Source: Cyanophyceae cyanobacterium (lineage in GTDB: Bacteria; Cyanobacteriota; Cyanobacteriia; Cyanobacteriales; JBHJGN01). From it: a DNA stretch of 12,783 nt. Shown here one piece after another: positions 2 to 12,783 of this stretch; position 1 is the first letter of the stretch; each line of letters begins with the position of its first letter. The notes under the pieces were generated by a model. The model worked only from the letters and a program-made list of their open reading frames with translations. It was not told the origin of the DNA and did not search any database. The DNA lies in contig JBHJGN010000026.1 in the NCBI GenBank assembly GCA_050331735.1, forward strand, positions 1 through 12,783. Reading direction: 5' to 3'. Made by a program: the position numbers and the translations under genes.

Positions 2-1657
2 CGGATCTTTCGGCGGACGATGCACTCTCTCCGTTAAAGAAAATCCAGGATTAGCAATTAACCTCCCTAACGCCGGAAAATACCTTGCAGCGCCAATCCC
101 TTCGTAGCCTCGAATTTGATCCACTGTCGCCGCTTTTTCTGGATTGAGTACCGCTTCCATCTCTTCAGTAATACCCACAATTGCCTCAGCCACTTCCGGA
201 TACCGTCGCTTACGGTTGAGCCTCAACAACAACTGCTTAGAGTTCCATAACTTTCCCCGCACAATCTGCCGCGCTACCCCTACCTGAAATTCTTCATCGT
301 GCCGTCGCTCAAACTGTGCCGTCTCAACCACTAAATTATCCGCCTCAGCACTCCATAAGTGCCCCTTATATTCCCCCAACTGAGTTAAAAACACCACTGG
401 AATTTGCTCTGCCAGACACGTCGAAATAACGCTCGTCGTGAGCTGAATATTGCCAAATACGAGAATTCTCTCTACCTCCCGAATCAGTACCTCCAGACGA
501 TCTTCTCCAGGAGGCTGAACCAGAAAACGCCCCTGTTCTTTACGAATCGTTGTTCCTTGCTCTACTAAATAAAGCGTTGCCATCTCTGGAATCCAAGCTT
601 GTTCAACTGATGTAATCGGCACAGATTTTTCTGGACGCACTTCGTACCCCAACACCACAAATAGCGGCGGCGGAATCGGCTTTTGAGCTGCCTTCAGAGC
701 CTCCACCATTGCCAACTGCAACGTATTCGGCTGCGTGACGGTTTCCGCATGAACCAAGCGCTCCCCCTTATTGACTACAACTGGTAGATGGGGTGCTTCG
801 GTTTTTTTAATAGGAACAATCAAATCTCCTGCAAAAGCATGTCCTAAAAAACGAAACCCGCGCTCAAAGGTAGTAATTTGGGTTTTATCCTGATGCAGCA
901 ATAGCCCCATTGCTGAGAGGATTTGAGCTACTTCAACATGAGCTTGAATGAGCCGTTTTTGAGTGCGAGACAGCAGCACAAAATCATCTGCATAGCGCAC
1001 CAGCTTTAGCCCTGATGCGGAAACAATCTCATCAAAGTCATCCAGATAAACATTGGCAAGAATCGGTGAAATAACGGCTCCTTGAGGAATGCCTCTCTGT
1101 GGCAGCACTAATCCTTCTTTAGCTAAAACTCCAACGGTAATCCACGCCTCAATCAAGTCAAGGAATTGAGGAATATCCAGACGTTCTGCTACCTCAGCCA
1201 GCAACCGTGGATGCTCAAGATTATCAAAATACTGAACAATATCGGCATCTAGTACCCATTCGTAGCCTCTATCGCGCCACTGAGCCACCTGACGCACTGC
1301 CATAAGATGAGATCGTCCCGGTCGATAAGCAAAGCTACAGGGTTCAAACTCCTGCTCCATCACTGGATGCAGCACGTTCAGCATCGCCTGCTGCACAATT
1401 CTATCCCTCACCGTCGGCACACGCAGTTCTCGCCATCCCCCCTTCTTTTTGGGGATTACGATCTGTCGCCAAGGCAGCGGACGATAGATTCCTTCAGCAA
1501 CAGTACACCTTAACTGAGATAGATAAGTCTTCTGCCTCGCTCGAAACTCCCCGATTGTCTCTCCATCCACCCCAGCACAGCCCCTATTTTTTGCCACCTT
1601 TTCCCACGCCAACTGAAAATTAGTCCGGCTGAGAAACTGATCCCTTAAAGAACCCAT
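2..1657 (-). CDS. cas1: Reverse transcriptase-Cas1 fusion (RT-Cas1), 3' end beyond the left edge of the window
   Basis: Manual translation from the ATG at 1657 gives 552 codons open to the edge. Group II intron-type RT motifs: MGSLRDQFLSRTNFQLAWEKVAKNRGCAGVDG, IPKKKGGWRELRVPTVRDRIVQQA, SFAYRPGRS, WVLDADIVQYFD, GIPQGAVISPILANVYLD, VRYADDF (YADD at 983-994), GFRFLG. After a linker the same frame gives Cas1 from 583: MATLYLVEQGTTIRKEQGRF, ILVFGNIQLTT, IVRGKLWNS, IRGYEGIGAARYF, RVHRPPKDP. Confidence 0.96.
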   Translation of the reverse strand, partial: MGSLRDQFLSRTNFQLAWEKVAKNRGCAGVDGETIGEFRARQKTYLSQLRCTVAEGIYRPLPWRQIVIPKKKGGWRELRVPTVRDRIVQQAMLNVLHPVMEQEFEPCSFAYRPGRSHLMAVRQVAQWRDRGYEWVLDADIVQYFDNLEHPRLLAEVAERLDIPQFLDLIEAWITVGVLAKEGLVLPQRGIPQGAVISPILANVYLDDFDEIVSASGLKLVRYADDFVLLSRTQKRLIQAHVEVAQILSAMGLLLHQDKTQITTFERGFRFLGHAFAGDLIVPIKKTEAPHLPVVVNKGERLVHAETVTQPNTLQLAMVEALKAAQKPIPPPLFVVLGYEVRPEKSVPITSVEQAWIPEMATLYLVEQGTTIRKEQGRFLVQPPGEDRLEVLIREVERILVFGNIQLTTSVISTCLAEQIPVVFLTQLGEYKGHLWSAEADNLVVETAQFERRHDEEFQVGVARQIVRGKLWNSKQLLLRLNRKRRYPEVAEAIVGITEEMEAVLNPEKAATVDQIRGYEGIGAARYFPALGRLIANPGFSLTERVHRPPKDP

Positions 1658-1742
1658 AGCTTATGAAAGTAGATTGTCGAACTAAGAAGTTACAGCGAAA
1701 AGTTCAGAAAATAGAGAAAGAGACGGCAGAAAAATGTAACAA

Positions 1743-2063
1743 ATGACTCAAACCACCAATAATGGCTGGCAGCAAGCAATATACAGCAACACCAAAGCAT
1801 TGGGAGGATTGGAAGTCAAGGTAGATCGACTAGAAACCAAGGTCGATAGCCTCGGAACAGATGTAGCTGTCCTGAAAGACGATGTAAAAAGCTTAAAGAG
1901 CAACGTAGCCGAACTCAAAGATAATATGAAAGCCTTAATGTCTGAGGTCAGCGAGATCAAGCCAGTCGTCATGTGGGTTAAAGTTATTGCTGGTATCGTC
2001 GGGACAGTCGCGCTTGGTTTTGCTGGAAATTATGTTTACTCAATTTACCAGTCTTTTGCTTAA
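1743..2063 (+). CDS. Small coiled-coil protein with a C-terminal transmembrane helix (hypothetical; XhlA/Bdr-like architecture)
   Basis: Seven heptads (LEVKVDR LETKVDS LGTDVAV LKDDVKS LKSNVAE LKDNMKA LMSEVSE) followed by hydrophobic VVMWVKVIAGIVGTVALGFAG. Purine-rich upstream region. Confidence 0.8.
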   Translation: MTQTTNNGWQQAIYSNTKALGGLEVKVDRLETKVDSLGTDVAVLKDDVKSLKSNVAELKDNMKALMSEVSEIKPVVMWVKVIAGIVGTVALGFAGNYVYSIYQSFA

Positions 2064-2168
2064 CGCTCACAATTCAGTCTTTAAATTCATCAACACTTTC
2101 AGCAACTACCTGTTATCAGAAATTGCATTAATGGCATAAGTCCTCATTAGAAAAACAAGAAGACAACA

Positions 2169-3002
2169 TTAAGCGAATTTCTGATGTTTAAGATTGTATG
2201 TAATTTTAACTTCCATGATCTGTGGAAAATGAATTTGGCTAATGTACTGTAAATGTCTTCTTGGTGTAGCACAGGCGAGAATTATTCCTGCTGTCATTAC
2301 TTTTGTAGCCCCGGTAATATCGGCAATTACTTTAAATTCATCTAAACGTTGGTTCCGAGCATGATTGTAGATGCAGTTTACAAGATGATGAATGTGATTT
2401 GGATCGTCGAGACGATCATCAGGAACAAGCAAACTGAGTTTTTCTCCTGGAAAGTCTAGATCTTCAAGTTCATAGTTGCCGTAATATATTTTGACTTTTT
2501 GAGTTACTCCTTCTTTTGTTAGATTATTAAGCATATTTTTGGCGAAAGGCAAAGATTTCTCTGTACAGATTATCCAACAATGTTCTAGCTGTCCTTTCCC
2601 TTTGTCCCAATGTTCCATAATTGCTCGTTCAGCAGGAGAGTCATTCTTAGGACTCATTGCTACGATTAATCCAGTAAAGTTTTTTTCTAGAGGGTAAACA
2701 TTAGGTTGAGGAGAGGCAGCACCAAAAGCTCCAATAAATTTGTCTCTTAACCAACGGGAGAGAGGTGTAAGGGAGATCAATATAAAGAGAATTGTAGTGA
2801 TTACAGACCAGACCACTAACTTAAATAAGGCTACACTACTAATTCCCAACTGCTTGCCTATCCAGTCTGCAAAATAATCCCAAAATAATGAGGAAAAACC
2901 ATCAGCGATAAGCGTTAGTAGCAGTATACTGATGACAAAAGAATTAAGAAAGCGTTTAGTAGGGTCTGCGATCGCCTCAATTACCGGATTGCGTTGAATC
3001 AT
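2169..3002 (-). CDS. Two-TM + CARF domain protein, Cam1-like type III membrane effector
   Basis: Two N-terminal hydrophobic segments (FVISILLLTLIADGFSSLFW; LFKLVVWSVITTILFILISL). Then a Rossmann-like CARF pattern: GLIVAMS, AIMEH, HCWIICT and the CARF signature VIADITGATKVMTAG. No room for a C-terminal nuclease domain. Located inside a type III locus. Confidence 0.85.
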   Translation of the reverse strand: MIQRNPVIEAIADPTKRFLNSFVISILLLTLIADGFSSLFWDYFADWIGKQLGISSVALFKLVVWSVITTILFILISLTPLSRWLRDKFIGAFGAASPQPNVYPLEKNFTGLIVAMSPKNDSPAERAIMEHWDKGKGQLEHCWIICTEKSLPFAKNMLNNLTKEGVTQKVKIYYGNYELEDLDFPGEKLSLLVPDDRLDDPNHIHHLVNCIYNHARNQRLDEFKVIADITGATKVMTAGIILACATPRRHLQYISQIHFPQIMEVKITYNLKHQKFA

Positions 3003-3341
3003 ATGAAAATTATCGTAAGTTGACTTGGTTTACTAGGACGAAAAGTTGCTACTAGGTTGGTTTGACAAGCAGTATTACTCTGCAAATGATTGACTATCAA
3101 GAGTTACGCATCGGCAACTATCCTTGGAGGATAAGGGAACGAAACATGATTAACTACGTAAGTTCTGACTATATATTTACTACCAGTTGGAACAAAGCTT
3201 TTCCTGAAAAAACGCGGGTCTTTGCTTGAACGAAGCAAATAGCCTGCCTCAATTCCTCTCAGGGAATAACTACTTGCGATCGCCCAGCATTTTCAGACTA
3301 CTGTAAATTTAAGAGAACAGGAGCAGAAATTTAGAGATCCG

Positions 3342-3923
3342 ATGACAGCCTTAACAATTCCTCAAGGGTTTACGGTGAGTCCAGCTCAGTTTGACCAGTT
3401 AGCCCTTGCTAACGACACAGTAAGACTAGAGCTTACTCAGGAGGGAGAACTGATTATTATGCCGCCAACAGGAGGAAGCGCAGGCAATCAAAACTTTGAG
3501 CTTTATATTGACTTGGGCAATTGGAATCGTCGAACTAGATTGGGGAAAGCGTTTGACTCTTCTACAATTTTTATTCTCCCTAACGGTGCGAGGCGATCGC
3601 CAGATGTTGCCTGGGTGCGTTTAGAAAGATGGAACTCTCTCTCCCCTCAAGAGCAACAGGGATTTCCTCCCATTACTCCAGATTTTGTTATCGAGCTAGT
3701 TAGCCCCAGCGATCTGACCAACCAGCGGTATGTAGACTTACAGGCAAAGATGCGCGAGTACATCGAAAATGGCGCTCAGTTAGGCTGGTTAATCGAACCA
3801 AAACAGAAAACTGTAGAAATTTATCGCCCTGCACAAGCTGTTGAAGTTCTTAAACAGCCAGCAACGCTTTCAGGAGAAGCAGTATTGCCCAGATTTGTCC
3901 TAAATCTGAGAGGGTTCTTCTAA
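3342..3923 (+). CDS. Uma2 family endonuclease (DUF820)
   Basis: Motifs RLELTQEGELIIMPPTGG, FDSSTIFILPNGARRSPDVAW, PDFVIELVSPSD, KMREYIENGAQLGWLI. Confidence 0.95.
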   Translation: MTALTIPQGFTVSPAQFDQLALANDTVRLELTQEGELIIMPPTGGSAGNQNFELYIDLGNWNRRTRLGKAFDSSTIFILPNGARRSPDVAWVRLERWNSLSPQEQQGFPPITPDFVIELVSPSDLTNQRYVDLQAKMREYIENGAQLGWLIEPKQKTVEIYRPAQAVEVLKQPATLSGEAVLPRFVLNLRGFF

Positions 3924-4059
3924 ACACTTAGATACAAACAACTCATTTTGAAGGAGCGGACATTCATTGGCAATACTCTGATGACGCTACATCCTCAATT
4001 CTTTATAAACTTTTCAGCGATCGCCGCCGCTTCTCGGTAACTTTAAACACATTCTGCTA

Positions 4060-4099
4060 TCGCAAAAGCAGACATAAAAGATTTTGTGTTTCTTTGCGA
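4060..4099. promoter_or_regulatory. Imperfect inverted repeat (candidate operator) upstream of cas10
   Basis: TCGCAAAAGCAGACATAAAA-GA-TTTTGTGTTTCTTTGCGA. Outer arms TCGCAAA/TTTGCGA are perfect; ends ~50 bp before the ATG at 4151. Confidence 0.45.
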
Positions 4100-4150
4100 A
4101 ATTCATCTCTTCCAGGCTGTAGTTACCCTATAGCTACTCGATCGATAGGA

Positions 4151-6298
4151 ATGTCAGCAACCATCTACACAGCAATTACCTTTGCTCCAGTCCAGGGCTT
4201 TATCGAAAAGTCGCGCAAGCTTCGAGATTTGTATGGAAGTTCCTTCATTTTGTCTTACCTAGCCAGTACCATTTGCTGGGAAGCAAGGTGTCAAGGCTGT
4301 GAAGTTATTTCCCCAGCGCTAATCAACGTCATTCAGGGTACTCCTAATCAAATTATTGTCCGAGGAAATTTCTCAGAAGACGCAGCCCAAGGAGCTTTAA
4401 ATTGGGCTTGGCAAAAAGTTACTGAAAGATGTCGCACCTGGATAGAAGCAAATTGCCAGGCATGGATTCAAGCTCAGCTTGTAGACTGGGCAGTTAAAGA
4501 TAACTGGCATCAAAAGCCCACCTCAAAAACTCTCCCCTGGGGCAGAGATTGGAAGCTGTGGAGCAATCACTCCTGGGAATTTTTTTGGGCGCAAGGAAAA
4601 TCAATTACGGCGGCGCGACAGAATCTAAACGAAAAAAAGCGATCGCGCAACTGGACAGCCGTTAACTGGACTGGAGAAAGCTCAAGCTTATCAGGTGCTG
4701 ATGCAGTTGCGTATCCAGGGATGAGTCGAGTTCCGCCAAAAAAATGGGACTATAGAAGAGAAAAAGAGGCGATTGAGAGCTTTTACCGAGTGCTCAGTGA
4801 AAAAGTAGGCACCGCTTTTCTAGAATACGTTGCAGAACGGCTCAAGCAAGCATCTACCCCAGAATTACGAAAAGAACTGGTTGATAGATACGGAACGGGT
4901 TTTTTAGAGTTTGTCCAAACCACTCTTCCGAAACTAAATCAATACGACAAGCAAGAACTTGCTATTAAGTATGGTGCCCCAATCGTAGATCCTGCTGAAG
5001 AATTAAGCATTCCTGAGTTGGTTAAACGCCTCGTGACTTTAGAAGCGATCGCTCAGCCTATTGGTATCGGTTTTAAAGAAGTGCCTGAAACCTTTCGAGA
5101 ACTTAACCGCCTTAGCCAGAAGAAGGACAAGAACACAAAAGGTAAACAGCAACCAGTTATAGAACCAGATAGTCGCTGGATGGGCTGGTTTCAAGGCGAT
5201 GGAGATCGAGCAGGCGAATATTTACAGTCCCTAGTTAAGTTTGCCACCTTTTGCATCAAGTTTTTTTTCTATAGGCCGACTAGCCTAGAGTTTTTGTGGC
5301 TAAGCATTACTAATTCAGAAAGTCAAGCCTTAAATGTTTTTAGCCATGCCATGCTGAAATGGGGAGAATGTCATCTCAAAACAAGCCTACCCCCAGCAAC
5401 CGGACGTATTATTTATGCAGGAGGAGATGATTTTTTAGGGGTATTTCATCGCCCATCTCCAGATCCACGGTTTCTAAAACCGCTGCTCAATTACCTTGTA
5501 GATAAACAAACTCAGCGGCATCCTGAACCTGCCAGCTTAGAGAAGCTAAGAGAGCAAATTATTGACCAAGGACTTCATAAAAATATTTCTATTCCAGAAT
5601 CCGTTCGCCGAGGCTGGAAAAATATCATTGAGGAAACGGAACACCCCTCAGAATTGGATAGCCATCTTGGGTATGCTGGCTTGAGTCGTCAAGAAGCAGC
5701 CGTCCTCTTTTCACAACCTGTTCTGCAACCGCAAGAATGCTTGGAATGGTTTTACCACTTTCGCTCTACACAAGATCAGGACATCTGGAGCCTTCACAAG
5801 CAGCCAATTACTGTTAGCGTGGGGTTTGTTTGGGCAGCCCCAAACGTACCGCAACGGGATATACTGCAACATTGCAAGGATGCTGAGCAGACTGCCAAAC
5901 GGAAGGGACGCGATCGCCTCTGTATTCGTATCCTCTTCAACGGGGGCAACTACCTCGAATGGGTTTGTCCTTGGTGGTTTTTGGGAGTCTTGAAAGCTTA
6001 CTGCGATCGCAACCAGAAGACAGGGAAGGAAGCTATCTGGAGACATTTATACGAAGATGTTGCGGTATTAGAGTCCCGCCATGCTTTTAGTCAACAAACC
6101 GAAGTTGCCCTCGCGTTGTTTGCAATCTATTTTGGCGAACAAAGAAGACAGGAGCTTGTGGAACATCTTTGGGACACCGAAGAGAAAGCAGGGATTTTAG
6201 ATAACCAGCCATTAGCAAAAGAGTCTGCCAACGAGAAAGCTCTTAATCAATGGATCATCAATCTTGCCAAAGTGGGGTTTCATCTATGTCAACAGTAG
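4151..6298 (+). CDS. cas10: Type III-B Cas10/Cmr2, lacking the HD domain
   Basis: Begins with the Cmr2 motif ITFAPVQGFIEKSRKLRDLYGSSFILSYL; WFQGDGDRAG; Palm2 IIYAGGDDFLG (GGDD at 5420-5431); ITVSVGFVWA; AEQTAKRKGRDR. I prefer the ATG at 4151, where homology begins, over the TTG at 4094. Confidence 0.96.
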   Translation: MSATIYTAITFAPVQGFIEKSRKLRDLYGSSFILSYLASTICWEARCQGCEVISPALINVIQGTPNQIIVRGNFSEDAAQGALNWAWQKVTERCRTWIEANCQAWIQAQLVDWAVKDNWHQKPTSKTLPWGRDWKLWSNHSWEFFWAQGKSITAARQNLNEKKRSRNWTAVNWTGESSSLSGADAVAYPGMSRVPPKKWDYRREKEAIESFYRVLSEKVGTAFLEYVAERLKQASTPELRKELVDRYGTGFLEFVQTTLPKLNQYDKQELAIKYGAPIVDPAEELSIPELVKRLVTLEAIAQPIGIGFKEVPETFRELNRLSQKKDKNTKGKQQPVIEPDSRWMGWFQGDGDRAGEYLQSLVKFATFCIKFFFYRPTSLEFLWLSITNSESQALNVFSHAMLKWGECHLKTSLPPATGRIIYAGGDDFLGVFHRPSPDPRFLKPLLNYLVDKQTQRHPEPASLEKLREQIIDQGLHKNISIPESVRRGWKNIIEETEHPSELDSHLGYAGLSRQEAAVLFSQPVLQPQECLEWFYHFRSTQDQDIWSLHKQPITVSVGFVWAAPNVPQRDILQHCKDAEQTAKRKGRDRLCIRILFNGGNYLEWVCPWWFLGVLKAYCDRNQKTGKEAIWRHLYEDVAVLESRHAFSQQTEVALALFAIYFGEQRRQELVEHLWDTEEKAGILDNQPLAKESANEKALNQWIINLAKVGFHLCQQ

Positions 6299-7470
6299 TC
6301 ACTAATCCAGAAAAAACTATAGAGGAGAAAGGCGCTCGCCCTCTTTTTCAATACCTCATTGTTATTCAGCCGCTAGGCTTTTTATACGGTAGTGCCGGGA
6401 ACTTTCTTTCTCCAGAGAACCTTGTTGGTCGCTCTGGCAGTAGCTTTCCTCCCTCTGCTGCTGCCTTATCTGGGGTATTTGCTGCTCATTACAATTCAAC
6501 AGAGACTAATGATGACGATAAAAAGAAAAAACTTAAACCCTTGCAAGTTGCAGGTCCATTTTGGGGATTTAACGAAGAGCTAGATAATTTTTTAGTTCCT
6601 ACTCCTTTTAACTGCTTGGTAGAAATGAAACGGGATGGGGAAGATGAAGAAAATCAGGTTAGAGCAGGACAAGTTCAGCAAAAAATCTTTTGGCATACCA
6701 AAGATCAGAAGTGGCTCGACCAAAACTATCAAGTTCCCAAAGGGAAGTTTTTCCGTGGTAGTTGGATAAAGATTAATGATTGGCACAAAGTTAATTCAGA
6801 GCAATGGCAAGACACAGAGGTATTTGAGGCTCCTTGGCATTACGTTCCATACCTGCATCCTCAACTAGAAAAACAACAGCGGCGGGTGGATGCCGCTCTC
6901 GAACGAGGCAGTCTGTTTCTAGAAAATGCAGTGGCTTTGCATCCCGACACCTGCATAGTTTATTTGGCTAACGACAAGCTGCCTTACGGCTGGTATCGTT
7001 TTGGCGGTGAAGGGCACATGGTCAATCTCGAATGGCGCTCCCTATCTTTTCAGTGCCAAGAGTTATTGGAAAATGGCTCTCTTAGTAAAAGCTTTGCCTT
7101 AGTTACCCCAGCAATTTGGGGGTCTAATCGCCTGTCGGAAAGGGAACCGATTGTGGCCCAAACAAACCAGAAAGCATGGCAGGTAGAAGCAATGCTCACC
7201 GAGCGTCCAAGTCCCTACCGCTATCGGTTAGGGAAACGGTCTTTAGAACAACCACTGGAAGAAGTATCAAACCGTCAACCACACAAACCTGGACGATTAT
7301 CTAGAGGACGCTACGCTGTACCAGCAGGAACGGTTTATGTTCTAAAAAAGCCTTTTGAACTAGAAAACACCTGGCAGAAATGGCCAGATAGCTGGTTTCC
7401 AAAAGAGGCTTATTCCTTTAAGCGCTGGGGATGCGGATTGGCGCTGCCGTTAGACAATGCGATCGCATAG
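6286..7470 (+). CDS. cmr3: Cmr3 (Cas5-like RAMP)
   Basis: YLIVIQPLGFLYGSAG, FPPSAAALSG, GWYRFGGEGH, YAVPAGTVY, C-terminal WGCGLAL Gly loop. The ATG at 6286 overlaps the cas10 stop; 6250 is an alternative start. Confidence 0.93.
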   Translation: MSTVVTNPEKTIEEKGARPLFQYLIVIQPLGFLYGSAGNFLSPENLVGRSGSSFPPSAAALSGVFAAHYNSTETNDDDKKKKLKPLQVAGPFWGFNEELDNFLVPTPFNCLVEMKRDGEDEENQVRAGQVQQKIFWHTKDQKWLDQNYQVPKGKFFRGSWIKINDWHKVNSEQWQDTEVFEAPWHYVPYLHPQLEKQQRRVDAALERGSLFLENAVALHPDTCIVYLANDKLPYGWYRFGGEGHMVNLEWRSLSFQCQELLENGSLSKSFALVTPAIWGSNRLSEREPIVAQTNQKAWQVEAMLTERPSPYRYRLGKRSLEQPLEEVSNRQPHKPGRLSRGRYAVPAGTVYVLKKPFELENTWQKWPDSWFPKEAYSFKRWGCGLALPLDNAIA

Positions 7471-7493: not shown

Positions 7494-8327
7494 ATGTATC
7501 AAAAAGCCTACGGTATTATTGAAACCTTAGCGCCGCTTCATGTCGGTGCTAGCGCAGGGGAAGAAACGGGAAATCTCAACCTGATTTTTCGCGATCAGTT
7601 TACCCAAACGGGGATTATTCCTGGTAGCTCGATTCGCGGTCGTTTTCGGGCGGATATGCGGCAATCGAATCAAGATGAAGCTCACTGGTACGGACACGAA
7701 TCCGTACCGGGACAAGCAGACGGCGGCACGACTGAAGCCAGAGTCAAATTTGAATATGCTTCTCTCGTTTGGCTTCCCGTATTTTGTCCTGGGCAACCGA
7801 TTGTTTGGGTAAGCTGTCCTCGTCTGCTGAAACGCTACCAGCAAATTACCGGACTGACTGCCGACACCCCTGAACCCTATACAGCTTCTCCATCTCTCAC
7901 AGGACGCAACATTCAAGGAAACCATCAGGTTTTATTCTTTAACCTTGGTTTCCTCACCGTTGAACAAACCACTGACCTATCCCCCTGGATTCCTCACGGC
8001 GCAGTCCCAGAAGCTAATTTAGTGGTGGTGTCAGATAACGATGTTTCCATGCTGCACGACATGGCCCTCTACCGCCAAAGTCGAGTTTCGCTAGAAACGG
8101 AACAGAAGAAAGCTAAACAGGGCGCTTTTTTCGATGTAGAAGCCTTACCGGAAGGCAGCGTTCTAATATTCCCGATTGCCTTGAAAGAGTCAGGCTGGAA
8201 CCCCTTTAACGGTTCAGTGACGGATGAACTGTACTTTGGGGGACTCGAATCAATTGGCTTTGGTCGCTGTCGCGTCACGCTAGCCGGACAAGGCGTTGCC
8301 GCTCAATCGGTACAGGAGGTGCGATAA
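7494..8327 (+). CDS. cmr4: Cmr4 (Cas7 backbone RAMP)
   Basis: LAPLHVGA, IIPGSSIRGRFR, LVWLPV, VWVSCP, FDVEALPEGSVL, YFGGLESIGFG. GAGG ribosome-binding site upstream. Confidence 0.95.
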   Translation: MYQKAYGIIETLAPLHVGASAGEETGNLNLIFRDQFTQTGIIPGSSIRGRFRADMRQSNQDEAHWYGHESVPGQADGGTTEARVKFEYASLVWLPVFCPGQPIVWVSCPRLLKRYQQITGLTADTPEPYTASPSLTGRNIQGNHQVLFFNLGFLTVEQTTDLSPWIPHGAVPEANLVVVSDNDVSMLHDMALYRQSRVSLETEQKKAKQGAFFDVEALPEGSVLIFPIALKESGWNPFNGSVTDELYFGGLESIGFGRCRVTLAGQGVAAQSVQEVR

Positions 8328-8734
8328 TGGCTTGGCACTACTACAGCCTAGATCGAGAAGCCCAAAAACTGGTGCTAGATGCCAAAATACGCGATCGCAA
8401 TTCTCTCAATCAGTCTTTTAAAATGCGTGAAGCGGTTGCCTACGGTCTAGAACGCTTCTGGGGCGAACATCTGCGCTTGCAAATCAAAGAGCCAGCCAAG
8501 TCCCAGTATTGGAAAGAAACTTGGGATACGCTAGTTAAGCTCATGGAACATGCTAAAGTGCCTCTTCCAAACGATCCTGTCGATGCCAACCAGACCGATA
8601 CGGTGAAGGCAATGGCAGAAAAGCTCTGGCATTTAACAATAGAAGACCAACGAGTGGCTCTAGCTGTGCTTGCTCAACTCTGCGACTGTCTGGTGTGGTG
8701 GACGCAACGGTATAAAGGAGCTTCTGAAGAATGA
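8327..8734 (+). CDS. cmr5: Cmr5 (Cas11 small subunit)
   Basis: 135 aa, helical, between cmr4 and cmr6. YGLERFWGE and LCDCLVWWTQR motifs. AGGAGG RBS and TAATG overlap with cmr4. Confidence 0.85.
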   Translation: MAWHYYSLDREAQKLVLDAKIRDRNSLNQSFKMREAVAYGLERFWGEHLRLQIKEPAKSQYWKETWDTLVKLMEHAKVPLPNDPVDANQTDTVKAMAEKLWHLTIEDQRVALAVLAQLCDCLVWWTQRYKGASEE

Positions 8735-10523: not shown

Positions 10524-11171
10524 ATGACTCAATCCTCAGTACCAAAGCTAATATCTGATACCTGGGTCAAAGCAACCTGGGAAGAGTTTATCGCCCTTGC
10601 TGACGATCCTCAGTATGCAGAAGGGAGATGCTATTACGACGAAGGGTATTTAAGAATTGAAATGGCAGCATTAGGTCCGGCGCATGGTCAGGATAACTCA
10701 ATTGTTTCCACTGTCGTTGTCGTTTATGCTGCTGTCAACAACATTCCCATTAAAGAATTAACCAATACCAGTTTCAGAAAAATTGGGGTGCGAGAAAGTC
10801 AGCCTGATATAGCTTTTTATATTGGCAACTCCTTACAATTTCCTCCTCGCAACAATTCTCCGGTAGATGTTAATGACCTTGGTGCGCCTACTTTAGTCAT
10901 TGAAATTGGCTCTTCGTCTTTTGCAGATGATATTGGACGGAAGCGCCTGCTCTACGAAAAGCTTGGCATTCAGGAATATTGGGTTGTTGACGTTGCGGAA
11001 GGGGAAGTGCTTGCCTTTGCAGTGGCTAATTTAGGGAGCAAGCGTATTCGTGCATCGCAGGTATTGCCAGGTTTAGACATGGCTTTAGTAGAAGAAGCCC
11101 TTAAGAAATCGCAAACCGAAGATGATGGCGCGATCGCCCGCTGGCTACTCACCACCTTCAGCCCATCTTAG
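10524..11171 (+). CDS. Uma2 family endonuclease
   Basis: WVKATWEEF, YYDEGYLRIEM, GPAHG, QPDIAFYIG, PTLVIEIG, KRLLYEKLGIQEYWVVDV. Confidence 0.94.
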   Translation: MTQSSVPKLISDTWVKATWEEFIALADDPQYAEGRCYYDEGYLRIEMAALGPAHGQDNSIVSTVVVVYAAVNNIPIKELTNTSFRKIGVRESQPDIAFYIGNSLQFPPRNNSPVDVNDLGAPTLVIEIGSSSFADDIGRKRLLYEKLGIQEYWVVDVAEGEVLAFAVANLGSKRIRASQVLPGLDMALVEEALKKSQTEDDGAIARWLLTTFSPS

Positions 11172-11274: not shown

Positions 11275-11481
11275 CTAAGCCGATTGAAAAGAGTAAGTCT
11301 GAGGTTGTGGAAGAGGATCTCGCTCTTCGATCAACATCTCTAATACATCTTGAGCGTTGCTTAAAGCTTCTTCATAAGAATCGCCGTGAGTGTGAGCGTA
11401 TTTCCCAAACTCTGGCAAAGAGACTACATAACACTGGTCTTCCGGGGACCACTGAATTAAGATGCTGTATTGAGATTTCAT
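11275..11481 (-). CDS. hicB: HicB family antitoxin (short form, no DNA-binding domain)
   Basis: YSILIQWSPEDQCYVVSLPEF, THGDSYEEALSNAQDVL. 4-bp overlap with hicA. Confidence 0.92.
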   Translation of the reverse strand: MKSQYSILIQWSPEDQCYVVSLPEFGKYAHTHGDSYEEALSNAQDVLEMLIEERDPLPQPQTYSFQSA

Positions 11482-11684
11482 GATTCTGCTTCCTCTATTT
11501 CTCTAAGATAGCTTTTGACATCTCTTTCCTGATAGGGCTTAGCATCCTGCCCGTCATTTCCAGAAAGGGTTAGTTTATCCATTAGTCGAGGATGTTTCCA
11601 CTTAGTATGGCTGCCTTTCCCAGATTCACTCATACAGCCAGCTTGGCGTAACATCTGTTTTAATTCTCGGATTTTCTTGGGCAT
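11478..11684 (-). CDS. hicA: HicA family toxin (mRNA interferase)
   Basis: MPKKIRELKQML, GKGSHTKWKHP (catalytic His motif), LSGNDGQDAKPYQE. Confidence 0.93.
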   Translation of the reverse strand: MPKKIRELKQMLRQAGCMSESGKGSHTKWKHPRLMDKLTLSGNDGQDAKPYQERDVKSYLREIEEAES

Positions 11685-12547: not shown

Positions 12548-12647
12548 CGCTTTATTGCCCAATCACCTTGGTTGGTCACCGAGTTCAGAAACAGAAGATT
12601 GTTAAAAACTTTCAGGGCATTAAAAGGAAAGAAAATTATTGTAGTCA

Positions 12648-12783
12648 TACCATTTCTTGAAAAGAAAGCACTGGCTTAGATAAGCTAAGACAAGCAGGAA
12701 CTTAGAGAGGGAAGGAATGGCAAGTGTTTATAACGTTGAGGTGAAAGAAAGCGCTGAAGAACTCAAAGAACTACTAAGAGGAC
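12648..12783 (+). mobile_element. Left end of a probable IS630-family element; transposase starts at 12717
   Basis: IS701 similarity stops abruptly at the TA at 12648-12649. The ORF from 12717, MASVYNVEVKESAEELKELLR, resembles the N-terminus of cyanobacterial IS630 HTH transposases. Purine-rich RBS present. Confidence 0.65.

Follow-up and report, generated by a model that had tools for sequence, protein, structure and literature searches.

The stretch of DNA analysed here, referred to as the window, comprises the 12,783 nucleotides of contig JBHJGN010000026.1 from a Cyanophyceae cyanobacterium (GenBank assembly GCA_050331735.1) and is the entire contig C26 of a genome bin (G000) that amounts to 99 contigs and 5.57 Mb and is rated 99.98% complete with 0.52% contamination. 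At its left end lies a gene, cut by the contig edge, in which a reverse transcriptase (RT) is fused to Cas1, and divergent from it stands what is by its sequence a full type III-B CRISPR effector set, Cmr2-Cmr6 with the GGDD cyclase motif (Table 1). Reverse-strand positions 1657 to 2 likely represent the 5' four-fifths of a clade-5 RT-Cas1 adaptation gene belonging to a cyanobacterial type III-B system, whose remainder would lie on a two-copy segment lost from the assembly and whose function would follow that of related enzymes. Publications are cited by PubMed Central accession or DOI.

Table 1. Features of the window and of the two CRISPR arrays on other contigs of the same genome (window positions unless a contig is named)
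Feature	Position	Strand	Basis or remark
RT-Cas1 fusion gene	2..1657	-	codons 1-552 of about 695; 3' end off contig
RVT_1 domain, residues 68-274	836..1456	-	Pfam E 4.4e-39
YADD catalytic motif, residues 222-225	983..994	-	
RT-to-Cas1 connecting region, residues 277-361	575..829	-	11/85 Pro; PIPPPLFVVLGY at nt 644-679
Cas1 N-terminal beta domain and first part of helical domain, residues 362-552	2..574	-	Pfam Cas_Cas1 E 2.6e-44
First Cas1 catalytic Glu, E519 (RGYEG)	101-103	-	
Shared contig end	1..141	.	141 bases identical to C72 start
Coiled-coil protein, 106 aa, C-terminal hydrophobic stretch	1743..2063	+	predicted protein
CARF protein, 277 aa, two N-terminal hydrophobic (transmembrane-like) segments	2169..3002	-	PADLOC CARF8--CARF_TM, E 1.1e-98
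Uma2-family protein	3342..3923	+	Pfam
Cas10/Cmr2, 734 aa, GGDD at residue 443 (nt 5420-5431)	4094..6298	+	Pfam, NCBIfam, PADLOC
Cmr3	6250..7470	+	Pfam, PADLOC
Cmr4	7494..8327	+	Pfam, NCBIfam, PADLOC
Cmr5	8327..8734	+	PADLOC PDLC01476, E 1.1e-64
Long Cmr6-family RAMP protein, 553 aa	8731..10392	+	PADLOC PDLC01212 full length, E 1.1e-210
Second Uma2-family gene	10524-11171		
HicA toxin and HicB-like antitoxin, 68 aa each	11275-11684	-	
CRISPR array, 20 repeats	C33:105-1662 (L028)		
CRISPR array, 17 repeats	C66:86137-87429 (L029)		

The RT-Cas1 gene

The gene forms a single open frame of 552 codons that starts with ATG, contains no stop and is open at its 3' end at the contig edge, which agrees with an earlier reading of the window made from the letters and a list of open reading frames (ORFs), here called the sequence-only reading. 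That reading had also remarked that the fusion was missing from the ORF track, which is explained by the way the list was made: frames running off the source are omitted unless open ends are allowed, and the gene was probably absent because it is open at the contig edge. The absence of an N-terminal Cas6 domain such as that of the Cas6-RT-Cas1 fusions (clades 8 and 11), likewise claimed, holds, as an in-frame stop two codons 5' of the ATG leaves no room for such a domain, no Cas6 family in Pfam, NCBIfam or PADLOC matches within the frame, and RT similarity sets in already at residues 4-12.

Hidden Markov model searches found both RVT_1 and Cas_Cas1 in this one frame. The RT fingers and palm occupy approximately residues 1-282, and the PADLOC profile for CRISPR RTs, PDLC01136, is matched end to end (331.5 bits). 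The NCBIfam profile for group II intron RTs, TIGR04416, matches residues 12-276 over profile positions 2-268 of 353, scoring 286.5 against a cut-off of 300. Both aspartates of the YADD motif, D224 and D225, are invariant among 35 sequences; judged by its residues, the RT active site shows full conservation, and the remaining RT motifs are likewise intact, in keeping with the intact group II-type RT described earlier.

In an AlphaFold model (mean predicted local distance difference test score 85.0), the RT superposes on the RT of the group II intron GsI-IIC (6ar3/6ar1; 415-425 residues) over 273 columns with a root-mean-square deviation of 1.9-2.0, a match that covers fingers and palm and not the thumb; neither this structural alignment nor the TIGR04416 profile detected a thumb/X region in the RT-Cas1 protein. 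Over its whole length, the model aligns with the Cas6-RT-Cas1 structure 7kfu across 562 columns. A reading of the protein as a group II intron RT or maturase was tried and rejected, given 0 Rfam matches in the window, the partial and sub-cut-off match to TIGR04416 and the missing thumb/X region. The region connecting RT and Cas1 had been called a Pro-rich linker; its enrichment in proline is real (Table 1; 6.0% proline overall), yet the region is more than a plain spacer: it carries the near-invariant motif PIPPPLFVVLGY and is modelled with a helix (residues 312-324) and short strands, only residues 345-352 being of low confidence or disordered.

The Cas1 domain is present, with its first catalytic glutamate, and incomplete: the Cas_Cas1 match covers profile positions 1-187 of 283, and the domain is cut by the contig end, so that the earlier claim of a Cas1 domain stands for its visible part. 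The PADLOC profile Cas1_IIIb, for its part, matches residues 15-551 of the frame. In an alignment of 59 sequences in all, built from every second match among those listed in the protein search described below, the 58 full-length homologues extend 140-144 residues (median 143) past the last residue encoded in the window. Of the 132 columns conserved to at least 95% in these homologues, the RT-Cas1 protein retains 130. From these 552 visible codons, the gene is apparently intact and cut by the assembly. The remaining approximately 143 Cas1 codons lie outside the assembly.

Placement in RT-CRISPR clade 5

All 120 of the 120 best matches listed from a search of a 5.8-billion-protein collection carry both PF00078 and PF01867, at 56-71% identity. 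They are mostly of approximately 695-725 residues, the named ones are cyanobacterial proteins called 'CRISPR-associated endonuclease Cas1', and the closest protein among the matches listed is 71% identical. The RT-Cas1 family is a large and already catalogued one whose members are routinely annotated as Cas1; in Pseudanabaena galeata, for instance, the RefSeq annotation names the RT-Cas1/Cas2 pair cas1 and cas2.

Two independent cyanobacterial RT-CRISPR clades, 3 and 5, have been described (Toro et al., 2017; PMC5541045), the former including Arthrospira platensis. According to the membership lists in Supplementary Table 2 of that paper, clade 5 includes fusions, among them those of Nodosilinea PCC 7104 and Pseudanabaena biceps PCC 7429, and stand-alone RTs from Rivularia, Crinalium and Cyanothece PCC 7424. 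Over the RT domain, identity to the window protein amounts to 67% for the Pseudanabaena and Nodosilinea proteins and to 56% for the PCC 7424 stand-alone RT, compared with 35-45% for RTs of clade 3, clade 7 and group II introns. The window RT falls among the clade-5 rows of a maximum-likelihood tree with 19 rows (20 were prepared; the frame of G037 had no match to residues 1-290 and was dropped), in which clade 3 stands apart (support 100/99); two clade-7 rows join the clade-5 group (93/90), and clade 5 is not resolved as exclusive of clade 7 in this tree. By sequence comparison, the window protein is an additional member of the already catalogued clade 5, which, together with the adjoining type III-B Cmr module, bears out the earlier claim of a type III RT-Cas1 fusion from a cyanobacterial clade.

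Fused and separate forms occur side by side in this group. Among 40 genomes of the order, one (G021) carries a fused homologue (58% identity), and four (G009, G014, G015 and G040) carry both halves as separate neighbouring frames at 53-58% identity, an arrangement also found on the PCC 7424 and Nostoc N6 plasmids. Fission and fusion are, going by these gene arrangements, frequent in the clade-5 lineage.

Contig-end forks and a probable missing two-copy segment

In all nine of the related loci examined, a Cas2-like frame starting with MLV(L/V)(V/I)VYD follows RT-Cas1 at a distance of 0-1160 bases; it is 90-91 aa long in eight of them, the frame in the ninth (L014) being clipped by the read range. 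An array was detected in eight of the nine loci and lies 240-350 bases past cas2 in the six that were measured.

The first 141 bases of the window are identical to the start of contig C72 and mark an assembly branch point into a shared segment outside the assembly. Past these bases C72 diverges into unrelated DNA, with a TPS-domain (filamentous-haemagglutinin N-terminal) frame at C72:231-1145 followed by further frames, and the contig thus carries a 5'-truncated cas1 remnant. A second such fork joins the start of C33 and the reversed end of C66. These two have 141 bases of their own in common, made up of a 104-base leader, repeat 1 (36 bases) and a single further base, after which they part into arrays of 20 and 17 repeats without a common spacer. 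A fork with two entries, two exits and overlaps of 141 bases is what an assembly graph with k=141 produces around a segment that is present twice, and the segment is therefore taken to be so. Going by the relatives, it should measure roughly 1.2 kb, composed of about 430 + 276 + 150-250 bases and both overlaps, and since the smallest contig kept in the bin has 2321 bases, a two-copy segment of this size would have been collapsed and lost. Sequencing run X1, the one run that contains the window and possibly the one from which the assembly was made, repeats this fork at position 141 in its Logan contigs, with a shared 149-base record at depth 80.4 and branches at 48.7 (C26) and 52 (C72); Logan depths are not copy numbers, and these values are a weak hint only. 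No RNA run containing the window was listed, and runs X2 and X3 from that study have almost none of the sampled sequence words; no conclusion is drawn from either. That record reaches only 8 bases past window position 1, and a scan of genome contigs for the missing segment returned relatives only.

The genome thus likely holds two units of cas1 3' end, cas2, leader and array, one continuous with the full RT-Cas1 gene and the other behind the truncated cas1 remnant. The sequence-only reading had placed cas2 and the array beyond the left edge of the window; the loci of relatives and the contig-end overlaps support this indirectly.

Two side observations concern the ends of these contigs. At its right end, the window (12647-12783) carries a repeated element; C87 and C72 have it at their ends as well, over 141 and 137 bases, respectively. 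With repeats at both ends of C26, the CRISPR island is bounded by repeats on either side. A TPS-domain gene lies near a clade-5 RT or cas1 both on the Nostoc N6 plasmid (L052) and in the present genome (the C72 frame mentioned above), which may be coincidence or an old neighbourhood.

Instead of a duplication within one genome, the forks between C26 and C72 and between C33 and C66 could stem from two co-assembled strains or from mis-binning, in which case only one of the arrays would belong to RT-Cas1 and the cas1 remnant to another cell line. The genome is a 99-contig metagenome bin, its source run is listed as a stromatolite metagenome, and the Logan depths, not being copy numbers, leave room for this explanation. 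We consider it fairly unlikely, as all four contigs are long (12.8-87.5 kb) in a bin of the completeness and low contamination given above, and as the arrays have no common spacer even at their old ends, unlike recent strain variants of one array. C72 also carries single-copy core genes: from their translations alone, we take the frames at 4040-4588 and 4624-5610 to be petC/petA-like. The similar depths of the C26 and C72 paths are a further, weak hint against a mixture of strains.

Repeats and spacers

The two arrays share the 36-base repeat ATTTACCGATTAATTGAAATCGGAATTGTTGGAAAC. The repeats are near-perfect, 33 of 37 being identical to the consensus and the other four differing from it at 1-2 positions. 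They belong to a class with a hairpin ...ACCGATT...AATCGG... followed by GTTGGAAAC; the predicted fold is a small 5' hairpin (stem of positions 6-11 with 18-23) with a free 3' tail, and is weak (z -1.5). With up to 3 mismatches allowed, the exact repeat was found in one of 401 genomes of the order, namely the present one. In Laspinema (L017) and on the Nostoc N6 plasmid, repeats of this class likewise follow a clade-5 RT accompanied by the same Cmr module, and the Nodosilinea and Rivularia repeats given in the supplement of PMC5541045 fall into it as well.

No source was found for any of the 35 spacers. A blastn-short search against the genome itself yielded no perfect match longer than 16 bases; with mismatches allowed, the longest match covered 22 nucleotides (nt) with 2 mismatches (E 0.54). 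Among 50,697 phage records there was no match for the C33 spacers and one match to an Erwinia phage for those of C66 (E 0.01), which is taken as chance. Among 72,556 plasmid records the only matches were repeat-to-repeat, with arrays of Aphanizomenonaceae and Nostoc plasmids.

Spacer lengths in the two arrays range from 38 to 51 nt (mean 43.3) and exceed those measured in related arrays (30-52 nt). For 25 of the 35 spacers the length is divisible by three (39, 42, 45, 48 or 51 nt), including all of the first 11 leader-proximal spacers of the C66 array; the binomial tail is 4.6e-6, calculated for one residue class of a pattern noticed post hoc. As it is the unit length that is measured, the choice of the repeat boundary cannot create the pattern. 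Steps of 3 nt were not seen in related clade-5 arrays (L004, L013-L023), where 88 of 228 lengths are divisible by three, in two more arrays with this repeat class (L052, 12 of 33; L051, 2 of 5), or in the remaining arrays of the genome, with 3 of 21 and 1 of 9. An origin from codon-phased sequence was tried and rejected, since no strand and frame was stop-free throughout, at best 16 of 25 spacers being so. It would be highly speculative to conclude that this RT-Cas1 variant sizes or selects prespacers in 3-nt units, replacing the fixed Cas1-Cas2 ruler, in a type III-B system that lacks cas6 and whose unit of cas2, leader and array is duplicated; possible causes would be a protein or filament that binds triplets and protects them, or an RT or tailing reaction that proceeds in steps.

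Both arrays have neighbours of note. Directly after the C33 array lies an IS66-family transposase split into two frames (329 + 111 aa; L028:1758-3199). On C66, a Csx3-family protein (PF09620, E 2.6e-34; L029:577-897) is encoded approximately 1.7 kb from the array's far end; its neighbours are a ParA-like gene, a gene of the Uma2 family and small frames resembling toxin-antitoxin genes. Csx3 is a ring nuclease family.

Neighbouring genes in the window

The type III-B module was seen without a separate Cmr1 gene in the window, and the window likewise contains neither cas6 nor a CRISPR array. No HD domain was matched in Cas10/Cmr2. At 553 aa, Cmr6 has approximately twice the usual length; PADLOC has a subfamily of its own for this long form, which is found on several cyanobacterial plasmids at 35-54% identity. 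The two Uma2-family genes flank the Cmr module on either side.

Between the module and RT-Cas1, the CARF protein with its two transmembrane-like segments (CARF-TM) is a candidate for a cyclic-oligoadenylate-gated membrane effector on the basis of its sequence. No solved structure matches its sequence at E-values of up to 1, and it is therefore not called Cam1. In 23 related loci, many of which are short contigs, CARF-TM homologues lie within 10 kb of the RT-Cas1 homologue in four and Cmr homologues near it in three. A CARF-TM gene stands directly upstream of an RT-Cas1 with 59% identity on a contig (L020) of a metagenome-assembled genome (MAG) labelled as the alphaproteobacterium Rhizobium sp.; this is likely a mis-binned cyanobacterial contig. 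For the 106-aa coiled-coil protein, no homologue was found beside RT-Cas1 relatives in the related loci searched. A promoter and terminator scan of positions 1500-4200 stayed at the level of shuffled sequence, with 7 promoter-like sites against a mean of 5.3.

Proposed working of the system and its alternatives

RT-Cas1 integrases are, to our knowledge, the only known natural route by which RNA sequence is written into a genome at a defined site. They underlie transcriptional recorders, and the Fusicatenibacter enzyme is reportedly one that has been used as such. In the system proposed here, the assembly structure suggests that the missing approximately 143 Cas1 codons, a cas2 gene of 91 codons and most of the leader would lie on the twice-present segment of roughly 1.2 kb. 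One copy would continue from the full RT-Cas1 gene and the other from the 5'-truncated cas1 on C72, and each would feed one array (C33 or C66) through the identical 104-base leader and 36-base repeat. RT-Cas1 and Cas2 would, by homology only, act as an integrase that inserts spacers at the leader-proximal repeat. These may be derived from RNA, by reverse transcription or by tailing of 3' ends with deoxynucleotides (3'-dN tailing), and from DNA, in analogy to the clade-8a enzyme from Marinomonas and the clade-6 enzyme from Vibrio vulnificus. The CRISPR RNAs (crRNAs) would guide the Cmr complex to transcripts, whereupon Cas10 may make cyclic oligoadenylate and the CARF membrane protein may sense it. 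For the cutting of crRNAs, the window offers no cas6; a Cas6 is encoded elsewhere in the genome, on C93.

The uptake of RNA spacers, and with it the recording of transcripts that the sequence-only reading had proposed for the locus, is the part that we infer from enzymes of other clades. The CRISPR system that the RT would serve is one that targets RNA. RT-dependent RNA uptake has been described for the type III-D RT-Cas1 of Vibrio vulnificus (PMC6821258), and RNA acquisition for the Marinomonas enzyme, the RT-Cas1 enzymes studied taking both DNA and RNA (PMC11014452). In literature searches on cyanobacterial RT-Cas1 and, from 2019 on, on RT-Cas1 spacer acquisition, no acquisition assay of a clade-5 enzyme came up. 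An intact enzyme might take its spacers essentially from DNA, with the RT serving another step such as priming or fill-in and with no recording of transcripts. Such a role would be compatible with the uptake of DNA by the enzymes just mentioned, with the ability of CRISPR-associated RTs to prime DNA synthesis on DNA and RNA (PMC10415136) and with a type VI-linked RT-Cas1 fusion that is discussed with 'no evidence of RNA' uptake (10.1101/2024.03.12.584598); the features of the window are silent on the choice of substrate. We regard uptake essentially from DNA as unlikely in view of the Vibrio vulnificus precedent, albeit from another clade, and of the fully conserved RT active site, which argues for a catalytic role.

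Returning to the clade-5 adaptation gene with its lost two-copy segment, a number of points speak against it and have to be set beside the evidence given so far. The histidine (...LH...) and Asp/Glu (...DLMEEFR...) motifs of Cas1 in the homologues fall past the contig end. Neither cas2 nor the Cas1 C-terminus is present in the assembly, as judged by tblastn with two Cas2 proteins and two Cas1 C-termini of relatives: the only matches, at 38-40% identity, are to an unrelated adaptation module on C93 that has its own Cas6 and a different 37-base repeat and whose Cas2 is 39-40% identical to clade-5-linked Cas2. Exact scans of metagenome contigs with window bases 1-49 and with the 36-base repeat returned 0 matches each. 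The link between window and arrays rests on contig-end overlaps without a spanning sequence, and these overlaps do not fix which array, C33 or C66, adjoins the full gene. With no source for any of the 35 spacers, there is no strand or RNA signal. Finally, the cas1 remnant on C72, the IS66 fragments after the C33 array and the repeated element at the right end of C26 are signs of rearrangement around the locus, which make decay possible.

That the locus is a decaying remnant, with Cas1 broken or joined elsewhere past the contig end and the two arrays no longer fed, would fit the truncated cas1 copy, the IS66 fragments flanking the C33 array and the decay seen in relatives (an internal deletion of residues 267-491 in Phormidium sp. 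CCY1219, L026, which retains query residues 84-266 and then 492-552; a frame break at residue 186 in a Leptolyngbyaceae MAG, L025, on a contig with 1.8x coverage by name; and only cas2 and an array left behind an ISKra4 transposase on an Aphanizomenonaceae plasmid, L051), but it is very unlikely given the 552 stop-free codons, the almost complete retention of highly conserved positions, and the near-perfect repeats and identical leader of both arrays, as expected of arrays in use.

Taken as the adaptation gene of a type III-B system, the RT-Cas1 described here adds one more sequence, at most 71% identical to any among the matches listed, together with a probable leader, repeat and effector set; it is a useful candidate for testing and leaves existing knowledge unchanged. 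Beyond this locus, adaptation modules next to arrays drop out of metagenome bins when a short segment is duplicated, and ORF lists that omit edge-open frames then hide the remaining part of such genes.

Comparison with known systems

The closest counterparts are the clade-5 fusions of Pseudanabaena biceps PCC 7429 and Nodosilinea nodulosa PCC 7104, which likewise consist of RT, linker and Cas1 in approximately 695-700 aa, have YADD and lack Cas6. Their overall identity to the window protein is 59-62%, with the 67% over the RT domain given above; in relatives, cas2 and an array follow and the system is of type III-B, and the repeat class agrees with that of Nodosilinea and Rivularia. Unlike in these relatives, the window gene is cut by the assembly, two arrays share a leader, there is a second, truncated cas1, and the spacers are longer. 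In relatives with a stand-alone RT and Cas1 (the Gloeothece citriformis PCC 7424 plasmid, the Nostoc N6 plasmid, G009, G014, G015 and G040), the order RT, cas1, cas2 is the same and identity amounts to 53-58% for the RT half and to 53-56% for the Cas1 half, but the halves are separate adjacent genes where they are fused in the window.

The Cas6-RT-Cas1 proteins of Marinomonas mediterranea and Thiomicrospira (clade 8a; 7kft/7kfu) also have a CRISPR RT fused to Cas1 in a type III context, and the window RT matches 7kft with a phmmer E-value of 3.1e-45 over the RT. According to the available text of PMC8102632, CRISPR RTs lack the thumb/X subdomain and are joined to Cas1 by a linker, with which the fingers and palm without thumb of the window RT agree. 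The clade 8a enzymes, for which the mechanisms of RNA uptake have been worked out (PMC11014452), differ in having an N-terminal Cas6, whereas the window protein has none and belongs to a different clade, and YADD in the window stands against FADD in the Thiomicrospira structure (PMC8102632). The RT-Cas1 of Arthrospira platensis (clade 3 of Toro, 'branch 5' of Silas 2017) resembles the present system in that its natural spacers are almost without identifiable source; as far as the text of PMC5513706 available to us goes, only natural spacer repertoires were studied in clade 3 and their sources stayed unknown. Clade 3 is of independent origin (PMC5541045), its proteins are 32-35% identical to the window protein, and it forms a separate, well-supported branch.

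Among solved structures, the RT of the group II intron GsI-IIC (6ar1) is the best sequence match (E 1.2e-50, residues 4-277) and shares the fingers and palm fold; the thumb/X, DNA-binding and endonuclease parts of such RTs are absent from the window protein, in which Cas1 follows instead. With regard to the effector side, CRISPR3 of Synechocystis PCC 6803 (type III-Bv) is likewise a cyanobacterial Cmr system without a cas6 of its own. There, RNase E and RNase J carry out the processing, and the 36-nt repeat combines a 5' hairpin with a 3' part that is single-stranded (PMC12464536). The repeat linked to the window folds in the same manner, but with the weak hairpin described above, and the long Cmr6 is distant from the RAMP protein of pSYSA (22.8% identity over 69%). 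As a further difference from CRISPR3, a Cas6 is present elsewhere in the genome analysed here, in the adaptation module on C93.

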